A DNA stretch of 64,000 nucleotides from Clostridia bacterium. GTDB lineage: Bacteria > Bacillota > Clostridia > Oscillospirales > CAG-272. Positions 26,923 to 34,374 of this stretch are shown piece by piece (within the stretch, counting starts at the first letter, position 1; the number at the start of each line of letters is the position of its first letter). The stretch covers positions 5,220 to 69,219 of the forward strand of contig JAFVYZ010000045.1 in assembly GCA_017508425.1 (NCBI GenBank), in the 5' to 3' direction. The position numbers and the translations under genes were made by a program. The notes under the pieces are model-generated. The model was not told the origin of the DNA, did no database searches, and saw nothing but the letters and a program-made list of their open reading frames with translations.

Positions 26923-29664
26923 ATGGGACTTTTTCGAAAGATCTTCGGTTCATACAGCGACCGACAAATCAAAAAGCTGCGTCATATTGCAGACCTGATC
27001 GAGTCGCTTTCCGATAAATACAAAGCAATGACCAACGAGGAGCTGGCAAACGTAACGCCGACGCTCAAGGCGCGCCTCGCGGCAGGAGAAACGCTTGACG
27101 ATATTCTCCCCGATGCCTTTGCGGCTGTGCGTGAGGCCGATGCAAGAGTTCTTGGCAAGCGCCCCTTTTATGTACAGTTGCTTGGCGGTATCATTTTACA
27201 TCAAGGCCGAATTGCCGAAATGAAGACGGGTGAGGGTAAGACCTTGGTCGCCACGATGCCCGCATACCTGAACGCCCTCTCGGGCCGCGGCGTTCACGTG
27301 GTGACGGTCAACGATTATCTTGCGCGCCGCGACAGTGAGGAAATGGGCCGTGTGTATGCGTTCATGGGCCTTTCTACCGGTCTTGTGGTTCACGGCATTT
27401 CGCCTGATGAGAAAAAAGCCGCTTATGAGGCGGACATTACGTACGGCACCAACAACGAGTTTGGTTTTGATTACCTGCGCGACAACATGGTGGTTTACAA
27501 AAAGGATATGGTCCAGCGCGGCCACGCCTTTGCCATCGTCGATGAGGTGGACTCGATCCTCATTGATGAGGCACGCACCCCTCTTATTATTTCGGGTGCC
27601 GGTCAAAAATCCACCGATCTTTACGAGCGCGCCAACACGCTGGTACGTAAAATGACAAAGCTCGTGCGCAAGGAAGTGGATAACAAGGAGGCCACCGATG
27701 ACATCGAGGCCGATTATTTGGTGGATGAAAAGGGAAGAAACGCCATTCTTACGCCACGCGGCGCCAAGCTTGCCGAGGAGTTTTTCGGTCTTGAAAACTT
27801 TGGCGATCCTGCCAATACCGAGATCGCCCATCACGTTAATCAAGCGATTCACGCCTGGGGCGTCATGCGCCGTGACGTGGATTACGTGGTCAACGAAAAC
27901 GGCGTAATGATCGTCGATGCCTTTACAGGCCGCATTATGCCCGGCCGCCGCTACTCCAACGGGTTGCATCAGGCCATCGAGGCCAAAGAAGGGGTGGAGG
28001 TTCAGCGTGAGAACAGGACGCTTGCGACCATTACCTTCCAAAATTACTTCCGCATGTACGATAAGCTCTCTGGCATGACGGGTACCGCCTTGACCGAGGA
28101 AATGGAATTCCGTGAGATCTATGCACTCGATGTAGTCGAGGTCCCTACCAACAAGCCGATGATCCGCATCGACCAAAATGATGCGGTCTATAAAAACATT
28201 AAGGGCAAGACCGATGCGATCGTTCAGCAGATCAAGGCTTGTCACGAAAAGGGACAACCTGTGCTTGTCGGTACCGTGAGCGTTGATAAATCCGAAGAGC
28301 TTTCCGCGCGTTTAAAACGCGAGGGCATTAAGCACAACGTTCTCAATGCCAAGCACCACGAGCGTGAAGCGGAGATCATTGCCCAAGCCGGCAAATTCGG
28401 GGCGGTCACCATTTCCACCAATATGGCAGGACGCGGTACCGACATTATGCTTGGAGGAAATTCCGAATTCCTTGCCAAAAATGAAATGAGAAAGCAGGGC
28501 TTTGGTGAAGAGCTGATCGCCATGGCAACCGGCACCACCGATATTGAGGATGAGGAGGTGCGTGCCGCACGCGAGATTTTCCACGCGCTCAATGCAAAAT
28601 TCAAGGCACAGATCGAGCCGGAGGCGGAGCAGGTGCGTGAGGCGGGAGGCCTTTATATTCTTGGCACTGAGCGTCATGAGAGCCGCCGTATCGACAATCA
28701 GCTGCGCGGCCGTTCGGGCCGTCAGGGCGATCCCGGTGAATCTCGCTTCTTCCTCTCGCTTGAGGATGATTTGATGCGCTTGTTTGGTGCGGACCGCATT
28801 GCGGGTATTGTAGAGCGTCTTGGTCTGCCCGACGATCAGCCCATCAATGCAGGGATCCTGTCGAGCTCGATCGAAAATGCACAAAAGCGCATCGAAGACC
28901 AAAACTTTAAGCGCCGCAAAAACGTGCTCACTTACGATGATGTGATGAATCAACAGCGCAATTTGATCTACAAGCAACGTCTTGAGGTCTTGAACGGAGA
29001 GGATATTTCCGAAACGATCCTTTCCATGATTCGATCAACGATCGAAGAAAACGTCGATCATTTCCTGGGCGACGGCAGTGAAGAGGCTCTTAATTTTGAG
29101 GGACTTGAGGCTGTATATAAATCCTATCTTTTGAAGCCGGGCGAAAGTTTTGAAAAAATCTTCGAGGATATGAAAAAGCCGAGCGATTTGACCGATTTCC
29201 TCGTATCGCGCGCCGAGGCACTGTATGCTGAAAAGGAAAAGCTTTTCGGCACTGAAGTGTTCCGCGAGGTCGAGCGCTCGATTTTGCTCCAGTCGGTCGA
29301 TATGCACTGGATGGAGCACATTGATACCATGGACGACCTGAAGGGTAGCATCGGACTTCAGGCCTACGCACAGCGCGACCCCGTCACCGAATACCGTTTG
29401 CAGGGCGCGGATATGTTTGATACGATGATTGCCGAAATCCGTGACGAAACGGTACGTCGAGTGCTTACGGTGATCCCGAGGCCTCAACCGATCGCACGCG
29501 TTCAAATCGCAAAGCCCTTAAAGGAAAATCTTACGGACGGCGCAACCGACAAAAAGAAAACCATTGTGGTGCGCAAGGCTGAAAAGATCGGAAGAAACGA
29601 TCTTTGCCCGTGCGGCAGCGGCAAAAAATACAAGAAGTGCTGCGGCGCCGGCGGAAAAGAATAA
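26923..29664 (+). CDS. secA: Preprotein translocase ATPase SecA
   Basis: EMKTGEGKT, DEVDSILIDEARTPL, TNMAGRGTDI, C-terminal CPCGSGKKYKKCC. Confidence 0.98.
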   Translation: MGLFRKIFGSYSDRQIKKLRHIADLIESLSDKYKAMTNEELANVTPTLKARLAAGETLDDILPDAFAAVREADARVLGKRPFYVQLLGGIILHQGRIAEMKTGEGKTLVATMPAYLNALSGRGVHVVTVNDYLARRDSEEMGRVYAFMGLSTGLVVHGISPDEKKAAYEADITYGTNNEFGFDYLRDNMVVYKKDMVQRGHAFAIVDEVDSILIDEARTPLIISGAGQKSTDLYERANTLVRKMTKLVRKEVDNKEATDDIEADYLVDEKGRNAILTPRGAKLAEEFFGLENFGDPANTEIAHHVNQAIHAWGVMRRDVDYVVNENGVMIVDAFTGRIMPGRRYSNGLHQAIEAKEGVEVQRENRTLATITFQNYFRMYDKLSGMTGTALTEEMEFREIYALDVVEVPTNKPMIRIDQNDAVYKNIKGKTDAIVQQIKACHEKGQPVLVGTVSVDKSEELSARLKREGIKHNVLNAKHHEREAEIIAQAGKFGAVTISTNMAGRGTDIMLGGNSEFLAKNEMRKQGFGEELIAMATGTTDIEDEEVRAAREIFHALNAKFKAQIEPEAEQVREAGGLYILGTERHESRRIDNQLRGRSGRQGDPGESRFFLSLEDDLMRLFGADRIAGIVERLGLPDDQPINAGILSSSIENAQKRIEDQNFKRRKNVLTYDDVMNQQRNLIYKQRLEVLNGEDISETILSMIRSTIEENVDHFLGDGSEEALNFEGLEAVYKSYLLKPGESFEKIFEDMKKPSDLTDFLVSRAEALYAEKEKLFGTEVFREVERSILLQSVDMHWMEHIDTMDDLKGSIGLQAYAQRDPVTEYRLQGADMFDTMIAEIRDETVRRVLTVIPRPQPIARVQIAKPLKENLTDGATDKKKTIVVRKAEKIGRNDLCPCGSGKKYKKCCGAGGKE

Positions 29665-29687
29665 GACGCAAAGAAAGGAGAAGTAAT

Positions 29688-30290
29688 ATGGGATTCGGAC
29701 TGCTTTTGATCGGATATTTTTTGATGAACGTGCTGCCCGTGATATCGGTCTTTTCATCGGCCATGCTATTGGGGCTCCCGTTGATCCTTGTGGGCCTTTA
29801 CCGACTTTCGCCGTATCATAAAACCTTTTATTTCTCCTATTTTTTTACCTATACAGGTATCCCGTTTGCCCTTTATTATACGCTTTACGCGTTTGGCAAA
29901 TTGGGGGTAGTGCCGGCATTTGCTGCCCTTGGTGGGACGCTTTTTGCCGTGGTTCAATGGACCTATCTTATTTGGAGCTTGGCGTTTCATATCCTGGTGC
30001 TCCTTGGTGTCAGTAGGCTCTCGGGCGAGCTTGGGCTTTATGGCTTTCAAAGCAACGCCATAAGAAACCTGACCTTTTCAAGCATTTACTACGTGCTCTT
30101 TTTATTCGTAAGGCTACCGTTTTTTGAGGCCTACGCCAGACCCTTTGTGATTCCGCTGGTTATTTTACGTTATCTTTGTATTTTCTTGAACTTGTGGCTC
30201 TTTTTCCGCACTTGGCAGGTTATTTTGCCCGAGGGCAGTGATGCCGAGCCCCCCAAAGAAAGAAGAAAAGAGGAGGGCAAAAAACAATGA
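29688..30290 (+). CDS. Hypothetical polytopic membrane protein
   Basis: RBS AAAGGAG; about 6 hydrophobic segments. Confidence 0.75.
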   Translation: MGFGLLLIGYFLMNVLPVISVFSSAMLLGLPLILVGLYRLSPYHKTFYFSYFFTYTGIPFALYYTLYAFGKLGVVPAFAALGGTLFAVVQWTYLIWSLAFHILVLLGVSRLSGELGLYGFQSNAIRNLTFSSIYYVLFLFVRLPFFEAYARPFVIPLVILRYLCIFLNLWLFFRTWQVILPEGSDAEPPKERRKEEGKKQ

Positions 30291-31678
30291 AAGCAAGACC
30301 CATGGGATTTGTGCTCATTTTGATCGGCCTTTGCTTTTTCTTTAATCCCTATATGGCCGCGATCGACGTCCTGCCCGACTTTATCGGATGTCTTTTGATC
30401 GCACTCGGTCTTGTGCCGAGCTCGCGTGTCTTTTGGGGATTGAAGGATGCACGTCGCCGCTTTTTGATTCTAGCCGCGCTCGATGCCGTCAAACAGCTGA
30501 TGCTTGTTTTTATTTTCAGTAACACGGCGCTCGGTGAGCAAGAGGTGCTTTTGCTGATCGTGGCTTTCCTCAGCGCAACGGTGGAGACCTTGTTTGCCGT
30601 ACTTGCCATGCACACGCTCTTTGGCGGTCTTGCTTGGATGCTTGATTCTTTCGGACGAAAAGATCTTGTAACCGCTCCGGTCGGTAGCCGTTCAAGGACC
30701 GAACGTTTGGCGCGCTTTACCGTCATTTTTATTATTCTCAAGGAAGCACTTTTGCTGTTGCCTGAATTTGCGGCACTTTTGAACAGCACTTATGTATATT
30801 CCAATTTCGTAAATCTTTACGATTACATTGGTCTGATGCGTGCCTTGGTCATTTTCCCCGTGCTCGGCCTTGGCATTGCGTGGCTTTGCGCGGTGATCTC
30901 TTATTTCATACGCCTGCTCCGCGACCGTGACTTTATGCTCGACCTTCAGCAACAATACACCTCTTACCTTTCATCACATCCCGGCGTTCGCATTATGGCA
31001 AGGTATTTTTTGGCACTCCTGCTTTTGGCTTTTGGTGCCTTTTTTCTGACTGACTTTTATCTTGATTTCAAAAACATAATCTCGGATACAGTAGGCGGTT
31101 GCCTTTTGCTTGCAGGTGTGTTGCTCTTGGGCGCAAAAAAAAAGGTATGGCTTCCTGCGGCCGTTTCGGCTATGCTCTATACCGTAATCGCTGCGATATC
31201 CGGTGCAAAATCCTACAATTTTGTCTCATCACACATTGGTGCCGACATCACACGCAGTGAGGAGGTGGCGGCGCAGTACACCGAAATGTGGCTTTTTGCA
31301 CTTTTTGAGTTGCTCGTATTCCTTGCTTTTTTGGCATTTTTGCTCCTTACTCTACGTGCGATTCTTATCAAGTGGGGCGGATATCGCCCCGAGCACACCG
31401 ACGCCGACTTTGAAGAGCGCCACGAGCGTCGGATCCGCGATGAATTTGACTGGTATTTTATCAAGTGCTATATTTTCGGATTTATCAGCGCGCTCCTGTC
31501 ATTTTTGTTTGATTACATTAAAACATGGCCTGATACCGAGAAATTGCGTTACTTTGCACGCCTCATGGAGGCTCTTTGGATCCCCGATTTTATCATGGCG
31601 CTTTTCTTTGCCGTTTATTTCTCGTATTTACTGACCCTGGTATTTGCTAAAATCGGCGAGCGTTTTCAATATGAATGA
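30287..31678 (+). CDS. Hypothetical polytopic membrane protein, apparently internally duplicated
   Basis: RBS GGAGG; about 12 hydrophobic segments; IDVLPDFIG..L..GL and NIISDTVG..L..GV open the two halves. Confidence 0.8.
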   Translation: MKARPMGFVLILIGLCFFFNPYMAAIDVLPDFIGCLLIALGLVPSSRVFWGLKDARRRFLILAALDAVKQLMLVFIFSNTALGEQEVLLLIVAFLSATVETLFAVLAMHTLFGGLAWMLDSFGRKDLVTAPVGSRSRTERLARFTVIFIILKEALLLLPEFAALLNSTYVYSNFVNLYDYIGLMRALVIFPVLGLGIAWLCAVISYFIRLLRDRDFMLDLQQQYTSYLSSHPGVRIMARYFLALLLLAFGAFFLTDFYLDFKNIISDTVGGCLLLAGVLLLGAKKKVWLPAAVSAMLYTVIAAISGAKSYNFVSSHIGADITRSEEVAAQYTEMWLFALFELLVFLAFLAFLLLTLRAILIKWGGYRPEHTDADFEERHERRIRDEFDWYFIKCYIFGFISALLSFLFDYIKTWPDTEKLRYFARLMEALWIPDFIMALFFAVYFSYLLTLVFAKIGERFQYE

Positions 31679-31706
31679 ATAACCGTGCACTCGCACACAC
31701 AAACTA
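31677..31706 (+). promoter_or_regulatory. SigG-like (forespore) promoter
   Basis: GAATA-N18-CAAACTA versus sigG consensus GHATR-N17/18-CATWHTA. Confidence 0.6.
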
Positions 31707-31749
31707 CCAAGGAACACTTCGTGTTCGAAATCAAAGGGAGATTTGTGTG

Positions 31750-31902
31750 ATGCAAAACTACAATCAAAACAACAACCAAAATAACAATCAAAACAAGAGC
31801 AATCAAAGCAACAACCAAAATAAGAACCAGAACCAAAACCAAAACAAGAACAACCAAAGCAACAATCAAAATAACAATCAAAACAAGAACCAAAACCGTT
31901 AA
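31750..31902 (+). CDS. 50-aa Asn/Gln-rich small protein
   Basis: RBS AAGGGAG, ATG 31750, in-frame AAC/AAT/CAA/CAG codon variation, stop and terminator directly after. Confidence 0.78.
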   Translation: MQNYNQNNNQNNNQNKSNQSNNQNKNQNQNQNKNNQSNNQNNNQNKNQNR

Positions 31903-31920
31903 TTCGGGATTTTCCCGAGG

Positions 31921-31949
31921 GGCAGGGGCGCTTGTTCGCCCCTGCTTTT
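31921..31949 (+). terminator. Intrinsic terminator
   Basis: GCAGGGGCG-CTTGTT-CGCCCCTGC-TTTT. Confidence 0.8.
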
Positions 31950-31965
31950 ATAAGTGAGGATAATT

Positions 31966-34374
31966 ATGACTGAACTTGAAAACCGCTATCTTTCGGTCAA
32001 GCGCGCTCTTTTTGACCGCTACTACAATGCGTTAAACGAAGAGCAACGCCGTGCCGTATATCATATCAACGGACCGCTTTTGATATTGGCGGGTGCGGGA
32101 AGCGGCAAGACTACCGTGTTGGTCCACCGCATTGCCTACATACTTCGCTTTGGAAATGCATATCATAGCGATTACGTTCCCTTTGACCTGGATGCTGCCC
32201 ATGTGGACGCACTTGAAAAAACGGCCCGATCGAGCATCGATCGCGAGGAGCTGGAGGCGATCCTCTCAGAATTCACCAACAGTCCTTGCCCCCCTTGGCG
32301 TATTTTGGCAATTACCTTTACCAACAAGGCCGCAGGGGAGATCAAAGCGCGTCTTGCCGGCGCTTTTCCTGATGATCCGGACATTACAGGCAATATTTGG
32401 GCCGGTACCTTCCACTCGATCTGTATGAGGATCCTGCGCCGTTACACCGAGCTTGCAGGCCTGCGTCCCGGATTTTCGGTATATGATGCGGATGACAGCA
32501 AAAAAGCGATCCAAGCGATCTTAAAAGAGATGGATATTGGCGACGCCGTGCTTTCGGCAAAATCGGCGCAAAACTACATCAGTCGCGCCAAGGACCGTAT
32601 GATCACACCCGAAGAATATATGCTGGAATTCGGCAACGATGCAAGGCAAAAAACGGTGGCCGCCGTTTATGATGCTTATCAAAAACGCCTTGCCGCATCC
32701 AATGCGCTCGACTTTGATGACATTATTTGCCGCACGGTCAAGCTGCTTGAAGAAAACAAGGAGATCCTGCAAAGCTATCAAAGCCAGTTCCGTTACGTGT
32801 CGGTTGACGAGTATCAGGATACCAACGAAGCGCAGTTCCGCCTAACCGCTCTCCTTTCGGGTGGCTGGCGCAATTTGATGGTAGTGGGCGATGATGACCA
32901 AAGCATTTATAAGTTCCGCGGTGCGACCATTGCCAACATTCTCGGCTTTGACCGCGTGTTCAGCGATGCCGGTGTAATTCGCTTGGAGCAAAATTATCGA
33001 TCCACACAATCGATCCTTGATGCCGCAAACGCCATTATTTCGCACAACGAGGGGCGAAAAGGAAAAACCCTTTGGACCGATCGCGGCAAGGGAAGCAAGA
33101 TCCATTTGCTCAATCCCGACAATCAAAACACCGAGGCCCGCACCATCATCGATACCGTCATTCGTAAGGTGTCGAAGGAGGGAATGCACTACCGTGATTT
33201 TGCCGTTCTTTACCGTACCAATGCCCAATCCAACGCACTGGAAATGGCATTTACAAGAAGCGGCATCCCTTATCGTATGCTGGGCGGTGTACGTTTCACC
33301 GACCGAAAAGAGATCCGTGACCTGGTGGCCTACCTCCAGCTCATCAACAATCATGAGGACCAGGATCGCCTCCTGCGTATCGTAAACGAGCCTCGTCGCA
33401 AGATCGGTGACAAAACGCTTGCTGCAGTTGCCGAGATCGCAGCCTTTGAGGGCGTCTGTATGTTTGACGTTATGTCACGTGCTGATGCTTACGTTGCACT
33501 TGCGCGCTCGGCCTCCACGCTTATCGGCTTTACCAAGCTGATCAACGATCTTACCGATCTCTCGGGCGTGATGGCACTGGATGATTTCGTCAAAGAGGTT
33601 TTGGAGCGCACGGGTTACCGTCAAATGATCAAGGATATGGGGCCCGAAGAGGCCGATCGCCTTGACAACCTTGATGAATTTATTTCTAACGTAGTAGAAT
33701 ATCAAAATGAGACCGATACCCCAACCCTGGTTGAATTTTTGGAAGAAACCGCTCTTATTGCCGACGTTGACCGTTACGATGAGTCGGCCGACGCTGTGGT
33801 CCTGATGACCATCCATAGCGCCAAGGGCCTTGAGTTTCCCCAAGTCTTCTTGCCGGGATTTGAGGAGGGAATTTTCCCGGGACTTCAAACCGTGCTTGGC
33901 GGACAAGCTGAAATTGAGGAAGAGCGCCGCCTTGCATATGTTGCCGTCACGCGTGCTAAGGATGAGCTTTACATTCTGCACACCAAATCACGTATGCTTT
34001 ACGGCCGCACCAGCCCGAATCCTCCTTCACGCTTTTTGGCTGAGATCCCCGAGGAATTGCTGGAGCTGCCAAAGCCCGCTCCCGGCACTGCCGCTTACGC
34101 GCAAGGTGCCGCCCGACAAAATGCGGCACAGCGTTCTTACGGTGGACTGCGCACGGCAAGCGCCGACCGCATCACAGTCGGCCCCACGCGCTCGGCTGAT
34201 ACGGCAAGTGTGCCCGTCTTTGCAGTGGGCGATCGTGTGCGTCACGTGCTTTTTGGAGATGGCGATATTCTCTCGGCGCAAAAGATGGGAACAGACTGCC
34301 TTTACGAGATTGCATTTGATACCAAAGGTACCAAGAAGCTGATGGGAAAATACGCGAAGTTGAAGAAAATATGA
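31966..34374 (+). CDS. pcrA: ATP-dependent DNA helicase PcrA/UvrD
   Basis: AGAGSGKT, ITFTNKAA, VDEYQDTN, VGDDDQSIY.FRGA, TIHSAKGLEF, EERRLAYVAVTRA; C-terminal Tudor-like domain. Confidence 0.96.
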   Translation: MTELENRYLSVKRALFDRYYNALNEEQRRAVYHINGPLLILAGAGSGKTTVLVHRIAYILRFGNAYHSDYVPFDLDAAHVDALEKTARSSIDREELEAILSEFTNSPCPPWRILAITFTNKAAGEIKARLAGAFPDDPDITGNIWAGTFHSICMRILRRYTELAGLRPGFSVYDADDSKKAIQAILKEMDIGDAVLSAKSAQNYISRAKDRMITPEEYMLEFGNDARQKTVAAVYDAYQKRLAASNALDFDDIICRTVKLLEENKEILQSYQSQFRYVSVDEYQDTNEAQFRLTALLSGGWRNLMVVGDDDQSIYKFRGATIANILGFDRVFSDAGVIRLEQNYRSTQSILDAANAIISHNEGRKGKTLWTDRGKGSKIHLLNPDNQNTEARTIIDTVIRKVSKEGMHYRDFAVLYRTNAQSNALEMAFTRSGIPYRMLGGVRFTDRKEIRDLVAYLQLINNHEDQDRLLRIVNEPRRKIGDKTLAAVAEIAAFEGVCMFDVMSRADAYVALARSASTLIGFTKLINDLTDLSGVMALDDFVKEVLERTGYRQMIKDMGPEEADRLDNLDEFISNVVEYQNETDTPTLVEFLEETALIADVDRYDESADAVVLMTIHSAKGLEFPQVFLPGFEEGIFPGLQTVLGGQAEIEEERRLAYVAVTRAKDELYILHTKSRMLYGRTSPNPPSRFLAEIPEELLELPKPAPGTAAYAQGAARQNAAQRSYGGLRTASADRITVGPTRSADTASVPVFAVGDRVRHVLFGDGDILSAQKMGTDCLYEIAFDTKGTKKLMGKYAKLKKI

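Follow-up and report, generated by a model that had tools for sequence, protein, structure and literature searches.

The window analysed here is a 64,000-nucleotide (nt) stretch of contig JAFVYZ010000045.1 (positions 5,220 to 69,219, forward strand) from the Clostridia bacterium assembly GCA_017508425.1, which belongs to the Oscillospirales lineage CAG-272. At 31750..31902 (+) it carries an open reading frame (ORF) of 50 codons plus stop whose product is 80% asparagine and glutamine, hereafter the N/Q ORF. We show that the gene is real, as are its frame and regulatory boxes, and that all of these are under selection. Judged by its signals, it is a genuine and independently transcribed gene, one of a family of 4–8 kDa basic Asn/Gln proteins, predicted to be disordered and punctuated by Lys, Arg and Ser, of which we found no earlier description in the literature. 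Its sequence features suggest that it probably represents a new kind of small spore protein. On balance, we favour a small, basic, disordered protein made in the forespore from a sigmaG/F-type promoter, with a nitrogen and amino-acid depot as the likeliest role.

A short N/Q gene with its own expression signals

The 50-residue peptide comprises 27 N, 13 Q, 4 K, 3 S, and one each of Y, R and M, in agreement with the composition given in an earlier sequence-only reading of this DNA. Acidic and aliphatic residues are absent, as are a signal peptide and any hydrophobic segment; D, E, F, A, G, I and T are all missing from the peptide, and the product has a mass of 5989 Da, a pI of 10.6 and a net charge of +5. 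In the 1.77-Mb host genome the ORF is unique of its kind, its best 25-aa window reaching an N+Q fraction of 0.88 as against 0.48 in the next ORF. AlphaFold2 run on the peptide with a 23-row alignment returns a mean pLDDT of 53.4 and no secondary structure, consistent with predicted disorder. A prion-like segment is usually described as a disordered tract, a few tens of residues long, in which N and Q dominate, and by this description the peptide is prion-like, with 40 of 50 residues N or Q and that same low pLDDT. A complex prediction with four peptide copies scored 0.01 and weighs neither way.

The ORF is flanked by a complete set of expression signals. A forespore-type (sigmaG/F-like) promoter at 31676..31706 (+) consists of a −35 box TGAATA (31676-31681), an 18-nt spacer and a −10 box CAAACTA (31700-31706), and the upstream gene, for a 463-aa membrane protein, has as its stop codon the TGA of this −35 box. 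The 5′ untranslated region (UTR) contains a 6-bp stem-loop, GAACAC-TTC-GTGTTC, at 31712..31726 (+) (minimum free energy −6.0, z −1.8), which is a possible 5′ stabiliser of the mRNA. A ribosome-binding site (RBS), AAGGGAG, at 31734..31740 (+) ends 9 nt before the ATG at 31750, and a GTG lies in frame just ahead of this start, at 31747. Beyond the stop codon (31900-31902), an intrinsic terminator at 31919..31949 (+) is formed by a G+C-rich hairpin (GGGGCAGGGGCG, loop CTTGTT, CGCCCCTGC) followed by TTTT; a simple promoter/terminator scanner did not include it among its listed features. The sequence-only reading had proposed this expression unit, and each of its elements is found in the place assigned to it.

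Similarity searches are poorly suited to such a gene. A Pfam scan of the peptide returned no family at E ≤ 10 and NCBIfam likewise none, and a homologous-protein search yielded 540 word-sharing candidates, none at E ≤ 0.01. Profile A1, searched against 151 genomes of the order, gave no match and also missed its own source gene in the host genome (G000); because this positive control failed, its null result is uninformative. Profile- and BLAST-style tools thus appear blind to N/Q genes, which points to systematic under-annotation in gut metagenomes. The exact 50-aa sequence is present in the ESM Atlas as an unnamed entry adjoining clusters of 47-aa hypothetical proteins, whereas an exact look-up of six peptides in a 15-billion-protein collection found none. 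The suggestion that gene callers would pass over such ORFs therefore survives in part: the six peptides are missing from the large collection, but the window peptide itself has not been wholly overlooked.

Conservation within the genus

Because a peptide search is insensitive to sequences of N/Q composition, we located orthologues by synteny through pcrA, fetching 30 loci. The difference is large, with a match in 1 of 40 relatives by protein search with the single peptide versus 26 of 30 loci by synteny. The PcrA N-terminus is present in 39 of 40 genus genomes at 62–79% identity, and 26 of the 30 genus loci carry, immediately 5′ of pcrA and in the same orientation, a short N/Q ORF of 22–69 aa. 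Twenty-three of the 26 are strong orthologues (37–69 aa, 62–88% N+Q); the weak ones are L017 (22 aa, near a contig end), L019 (40% N+Q) and L029 (52% N+Q). Where the ORF is missing (L014, L016, L018 and L022), pcrA follows 12–85 nt after the membrane gene and the TGAATA box is missing too. Pooled, the 26 peptides (1251 residues) contain 569 N, 411 Q, 88 K, 41 S, 41 R and 25 D+E. Net charge stays between +3 and +5 in all 26, and many have Tyr near both termini.

The expression signals are kept with the ORF. A regular-expression search finds both promoter boxes in 24 of the 26 genus orthologues. The −35 box is TGAATA in 23 of these and TGCATA in one; the −10 box is CATACTA in 12, CACACTA in 8, CAAACTA in 2, and CAAACTT and CACAATA in one each. 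The spacer measures 17 nt in 7 loci and 18 nt in 17, and the spacer sequences are unrelated. This combination of near-invariant boxes and a freely varying spacer indicates that a sigmaG-like promoter has been kept as a footprint. The two loci missed are L017 and L032, the latter carrying GGTATA and then a GAATACTA-type box. An RBS of the form GGAG/GAGG is present in all 26 orthologues, and in 25 the stop codon is succeeded by a hairpin and a T run. The check that the sequence-only reading had proposed, for an N/Q ORF with its promoter upstream of pcrA in relatives, thus came out positive, and at the level of motifs a stand-alone, monocistronic gene with a sigmaG-like promoter is upheld. The 5′ mini-hairpin fared less well. 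It is present in the window, but z falls below −1.5 in only 8 of 24 orthologues (mean z −0.98), and some relatives have unrelated hairpins at that position.

The window DNA was found in animal-gut metagenomes from 7 studies. Metagenome DNA contigs from X2 (31238-32100) and X4 (30766-31914) span the ORF and are identical to the window. In run X2, one further contig of 3.1x depth carries a 63-nt in-frame repeat expansion at 31762-31796 (back 35 nt, 28 extra letters), which suggests that repeat number differs between strains. Two metatranscriptome runs holding about 10% of the sampled words gave contigs on parts of the membrane gene and of pcrA and none on the ORF; since contigs cannot reveal absence, this has no bearing on expression.

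Selection on the protein

An open frame is by itself no proof of a gene here: the DNA of the ORF is a degenerate tandem repeat with periods of 6, 12 and 51, and frame +2 across the same DNA is likewise open. These properties would also fit a by-product without function, in which an expanded hexanucleotide repeat is open by chance and the resemblance of the preceding sequence to a promoter is accidental; so would the low-depth expanded contig of X2 and the frequency with which start-less (NQ)n-coding microsatellites occur across prokaryotes among the matches listed below.

Codon usage points the other way. We pooled 1225 codons from the 26 genus orthologues. Asn is encoded by AAC 368 times and by AAT 201 times, and Gln by CAA 189 times and by CAG 222 times, ratios near those of the genome's long ORFs (0.58 AAC, 0.40 CAA). 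The second base of the codon is A in 1115 of the 1225 codons. His (CAY), one transversion from Gln, accounts for a single one of 412 CAN codons as against 411 for Gln; Lys (AAR), one transversion from Asn, accounts for 88 codons, and Thr and Leu for none. Composition has been held while synonymous sites were randomised, so the ORF is not a drifting microsatellite and its composition is under purifying selection. The view that selection acts on the protein, which the sequence-only reading had based on in-frame codon variation within this one ORF, is borne out by the pooled tally. In addition, the ATG, RBS, boxes and terminator are kept across the genus, at the PcrA divergence given above, and into other genera. 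We regard the by-product explanation as barely credible.

Distribution beyond the genus

We extended the comparison to a family set of 121 genomes from 97 genera, the host genome included. The pattern NQNQNQN, searched at the DNA level, turns up in 15 of the 121 genomes, compared with 3 for the reversed control. Ten of 14 other-genus loci hold an N/Q ORF of 43–79 aa, one match lies inside a large frame and three loci are without a qualifying ORF. Anchoring instead on the upstream membrane-protein orthologue in other genera, where 27 loci were parsed, we find 11 with an N/Q ORF (≥ 50% N+Q) that starts 66–102 nt past this orthologue; a twelfth, L222, came from a later script and L218 is borderline. 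The next gene is pcrA in several of these loci and an unrelated gene in others. Of 16 distinct ORFs from other genera, 5 are preceded by the strict promoter motif, where shuffles would predict 0.046; the variant boxes of the others, judged by eye, take the form of GAATA with CAnATAAT, or of AATACT.

A wider scan for NQNQNQNQN over one genome per prokaryotic species gave at least 120 stretches; the analysis covers the 80 that were listed. Among these listed matches, most are start-less microsatellites or tracts within large proteins, and four resemble the N/Q family (L069, L092, L125 and L144), all from Clostridia or Oscillospiraceae metagenome-assembled genomes (MAGs), one of them a Faecousia sp. 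The listed matches also include three short perfect-repeat ORFs from elsewhere (L076, L117 and L131). In L080 (a Clostridiaceae MAG) and L114 (Cytobacillus sp.), an (NQ)n tract opens proteins that have, by eye, a CotF-type coat-like body. In L101 (a Luteimonas sp. MAG, a gammaproteobacterium), an ORF of at least 81 aa in an unrelated context is rich in N, Q, E and R, with QNRNQQD-type repeats.

Sporulation genes and the sigma factor

The host has the machinery that a forespore gene would need, as the sequence-only reading implied: its genome encodes SigG (equivalog NF006071, 415 bits versus a cut-off of 372), a SigF-like paralogue, Spo0A (Spo0A_C), one alpha/beta-type small acid-soluble spore protein (SASP) and the germination protease GPR. 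A sigmaG/F-like promoter in such a spore-former is a strong argument, at the level of sequence, for a forespore protein. The boxes were compared with the sigmaG pattern of B. subtilis. Across the genus, C1, A2, T6 and A7 of the −10 box are conserved, T6 and A7 being almost fixed, and position 3 is variable (T in 12, C in 9 and A in 3 of 24 loci); the −35 box reads GnATA and the spacer is 17 or 18 nt. According to excerpts of Saujet 2013 (PMC3789822), sigmaF and sigmaG of C. difficile have consensus sequences similar to each other and to their B. subtilis counterparts, an A on the 3′ side of the −10 box is conserved in sigmaG promoters, and sigmaE/K promoters have a −10 CATA...T with a −35 of ATA or AC. 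With their variable third position and GnATA, the boxes of the N/Q gene agree with sigmaG and not with sigmaE/K. In the host genome SpoVAD, too, is preceded by a relaxed version of the motif, and upstream of gpr we read by eye a sigmaF-like ACATA-N15-GGGGATAATA.

The peptide could instead be a real small protein that is not specific to the forespore, made under another sigma factor (mother-cell sigmaE/K or a stress factor) and serving as a coat, cortex or stress hydrophilin. The −10 elements of the four sporulation sigma factors are alike, as the same excerpts describe (PMC3789822), the strict motif also precedes a lactate dehydrogenase gene, relaxed matches precede the enolase gene, and the SASP promoter of the genus differs in its −35 box. 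The box statistics argue to the contrary, since a variable position 3 with nearly fixed T6 and A7 is the opposite of the sigmaE/K CATA...T, and GnATA with a 17/18-nt spacer likewise speaks against it, as does a peptide with neither signal peptide nor hydrophobic segment. We consider this alternative quite unlikely.

The alpha/beta SASP gene of the genus served as a reference for a sigmaG target. Thirty loci entered the parse, of which 14 were left unparsed; 10 of the 16 parsed loci have xCATA-N17-CACAATA about 100–135 nt upstream of the gene. The leader itself (C52:99370-99560, L036; L187-L199) is about 100–135 nt long and conserved. Downstream of xCATA-N17-CACAATA it has a GCTCTTGAAAATAGA-type box, which is invariant, together with a hairpin rich in G+C. 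Rfam has no family covering this leader, a weak sub-threshold Termite-leu match lying elsewhere in L036.

GPR (PF03418) is detected in 96 of the 121 family genomes and was not found in 25 (for example G224, G256, G281 and G230), two of which are 96–99% complete and retain SigG-like, alpha/beta SASP and SpoVAD genes. Four N/Q carriers are among the genomes without it, and all four keep SigG-like, SASP and SpoVAD genes.

A candidate reserve protein of the spore core

The acting sigma factor, forespore expression and abundance, location in the core and a storage or matrix role are what we infer for the N/Q protein, along the following lines. RNA polymerase with sigmaG, possibly also with sigmaF, would transcribe the gene in the forespore from its near-consensus promoter; the strong RBS would allow efficient translation; and the product, a small soluble spore protein, would build up in the core. 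With about 89% of its residues N, Q, K or R, it would most likely store amide nitrogen and amino acids at high density, to be broken down during germination by some protease that is not GPR. In a secondary capacity, or instead, it might act as a polar, water-replacing matrix in the dehydrated core. The depot function is a weaker inference than forespore expression. It is favoured because about 89% of residues carry side-chain nitrogen, because the signals look suited to high output, and because SspE, the gamma-type SASP, is reported as absent from clostridial genomes in a passage of Galperin 2012 (PMC3533761). That passage also agrees with the statement of the sequence-only reading that Clostridia generally are without gamma-type SASP.

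Several observations weigh against the reading of a forespore depot. A reserve built of two amino acids would be very unbalanced, and we know of no protease for such a peptide. The cleavage site of GPR is made up of acidic and aromatic or small residues, and an acidic or aromatic site of this type is absent from the peptide, which is missing the residue types required. Nor is GPR enriched among N/Q-positive genomes (12 of 16, versus the family-wide 96 of 121). Since sporulation genes are kept by nearly all sampled family genomes, these provide no non-sporulating relatives for comparison. Some lineages do without the gene, which is cleanly absent from 4 of the 30 genus loci, and because 6-nt slippage keeps the frame unaided, in-frame length variation is weak evidence. 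The sigma assignment draws on motif resemblance, and sigmaF and sigmaG promoters are promiscuous with overlapping specificities according to an excerpt of a published study (PMC7438776). The strict motif has two matches in the host genome, one at the N/Q gene and the other a perfect TGAATA-N18-CAAACTA at C52:91256 (+), 28 nt upstream of an L-lactate dehydrogenase-like gene. The alpha/beta SASP gene, the canonical sigmaG target, differs from the N/Q gene in its promoter (xCATA, CACAATA) and in having a long leader. Outside the genus, the 11 of 16 ORFs beyond the five with the strict motif have variant boxes.

The main alternative to a depot, in our analysis, is a gel- or glass-forming matrix. 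In this view, the peptide would be a free-standing prion-like module that works as a functional amyloid, gel or condensate. Its reversible self-assembly into a gel or cross-beta matrix, taking place in the forespore or the spore, would immobilise or protect the contents of the core, with storage incidental. An N+Q content of 80–90% over 40–70 residues, Tyr near both ends in many orthologues and a monomer predicted to be disordered are all in keeping with this, and there is a precedent in the Asn-rich repeats of C. difficile GerG, which gel in vitro and have a prion-like score, as described in excerpts of the GerG study (PMC5241399). The regular Lys or Arg every 6–10 residues and the constant +3 to +5 charge would, however, oppose tight stacking, nothing that we computed shows self-association, and GerG is a distant model, being under sigmaE, much larger, about 30% Asn and functional without its repeats (PMC5241399). 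Assembly of this kind therefore seems unlikely to us. A bolder and similarly doubtful picture combines the two roles: in gut Oscillospiraceae-type Clostridia the spore core would be packed with a ribosomally made, poly-amide, prion-like peptide that gels or vitrifies on dehydration and is liquefied and eaten at germination, at once a nitrogen store, a protective glass and a convergent replacement for gamma-type SASP.

The N/Q family bears on a wider problem. Clostridia are reported to be without the gamma-type SASP from which Bacillus spores draw an amino-acid reserve (PMC3533761), and the family is a concrete candidate for whatever may take its place. Among natural N/Q proteins of bacteria for which a developmental context is defined, it would also be the most extreme, and it would provide a minimal system in which to study how N/Q aggregation is managed, put to use or averted by cells.

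Neighbouring genes

Two overlapping membrane-protein genes of 228 and 463 aa lie at 29604-31678, between secA and the N/Q ORF, and neither protein matches a Pfam or NCBIfam family. The second (30287..31678, +), a multi-pass protein, is probably outside the unit; its orthologue is present in 111 of the 121 family genomes, and no other gene lies next upstream of the N/Q gene as often. Downstream lies pcrA, for a UvrD-type helicase (31966..34374, +), also outside the unit. In the window and its closest relatives the terminator adjoins the pcrA RBS (31919-31968), which leaves too little room for a sigmaA promoter, and the nearest sigmaA-like site (TTGACT-17-TATATT) is at 31446-31474, inside the membrane gene. 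Distant members of the genus, by contrast, have a sigmaA-like TTGC..N17..TATAAT between the ORF terminator and pcrA, and this separate promoter supports a monocistronic N/Q unit.

The tight spacing in the window, with its sole nearby sigmaA-like site upstream, would suit a cis-acting element, either a leader peptide that senses Asn- or Gln-tRNA and allows read-through into pcrA, or an A/C-rich RNA that acts as a protein sponge. Rfam gives over the ORF a sub-threshold, chance-level match to CrcZ (17.7 bits versus a gathering score of 95), a weak point in favour of such an element. Against it, an Hfq gene was not found in the 83%-complete host genome. A conserved antiterminator pairing was not seen by eye in the genus loci, pcrA has its own promoter past the terminator in distant members, the genes downstream differ in other genera, and pcrA is unconnected with Asn or Gln supply; on these grounds we reject a pcrA leader-peptide attenuator. 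The avoidance of His and the synonymous drift point in addition to selection at the level of the protein, and a cis-regulatory or RNA role as a whole strikes us as very improbable.

Comparison with known systems

The N/Q protein is not a homologue of the known SASPs. A search of the whole host genome for PF04259 (SASP_gamma) gave no match at E ≤ 1, with the B. subtilis control above the cut-off, and the peptide has no match either. An alpha/beta-type SASP is ruled out as well, since the peptide has no PF00269 match and the single PF00269 gene of the genome is elsewhere (C52). Of the proposed likeness to gamma-type SASP, membership of that family thus falls away, and the sigmaG-like promoter and monocistronic gene stand. 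Like SspE, the peptide is small, very hydrophilic, of low complexity and enriched in Gln and Asn, and its gene is monocistronic with a sigmaG-type promoter and its own terminator; SspE too is a proposed amino-acid reserve, for outgrowth. Unlike SspE, it is 80–90% N+Q, basic rather than near-neutral and about half the size, with no sequence relationship.

In size the family resembles the minor SASPs of Bacillus (SspG-SspP, Tlp and CsgA), which a passage of PMC3533761 describes as about 4–8 kDa, forespore-specific, narrow in range and mostly of unknown function. None of the Pfam or NCBIfam families matches the N/Q peptide. The compositions of minor SASPs are not known to be dominated by N and Q.

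GerG of C. difficile shares induction in sporulation and an Asn-rich, disordered, repeat-variable region that gels, but it is a mother-cell protein several-fold larger, its Asn accompanied by Met, Pro and Ser; its repeats form one dispensable region only (excerpts of PMC5241399). No homology to the N/Q peptide was detected. Yeast-type Q/N-rich and bacterial prion-like domains are similarly dominated by N and Q, predicted to be disordered and dotted with Tyr. They differ in that here the N/Q tract is the whole protein of about 50 aa, with regular positive charges. Finally, cyanophycin offers an analogy in function only: it is likewise a nitrogen-dense polyamide reserve, but it is made non-ribosomally from Asp and Arg, whereas the N/Q peptide, with its similarly nitrogen-rich residues, is encoded by a gene.

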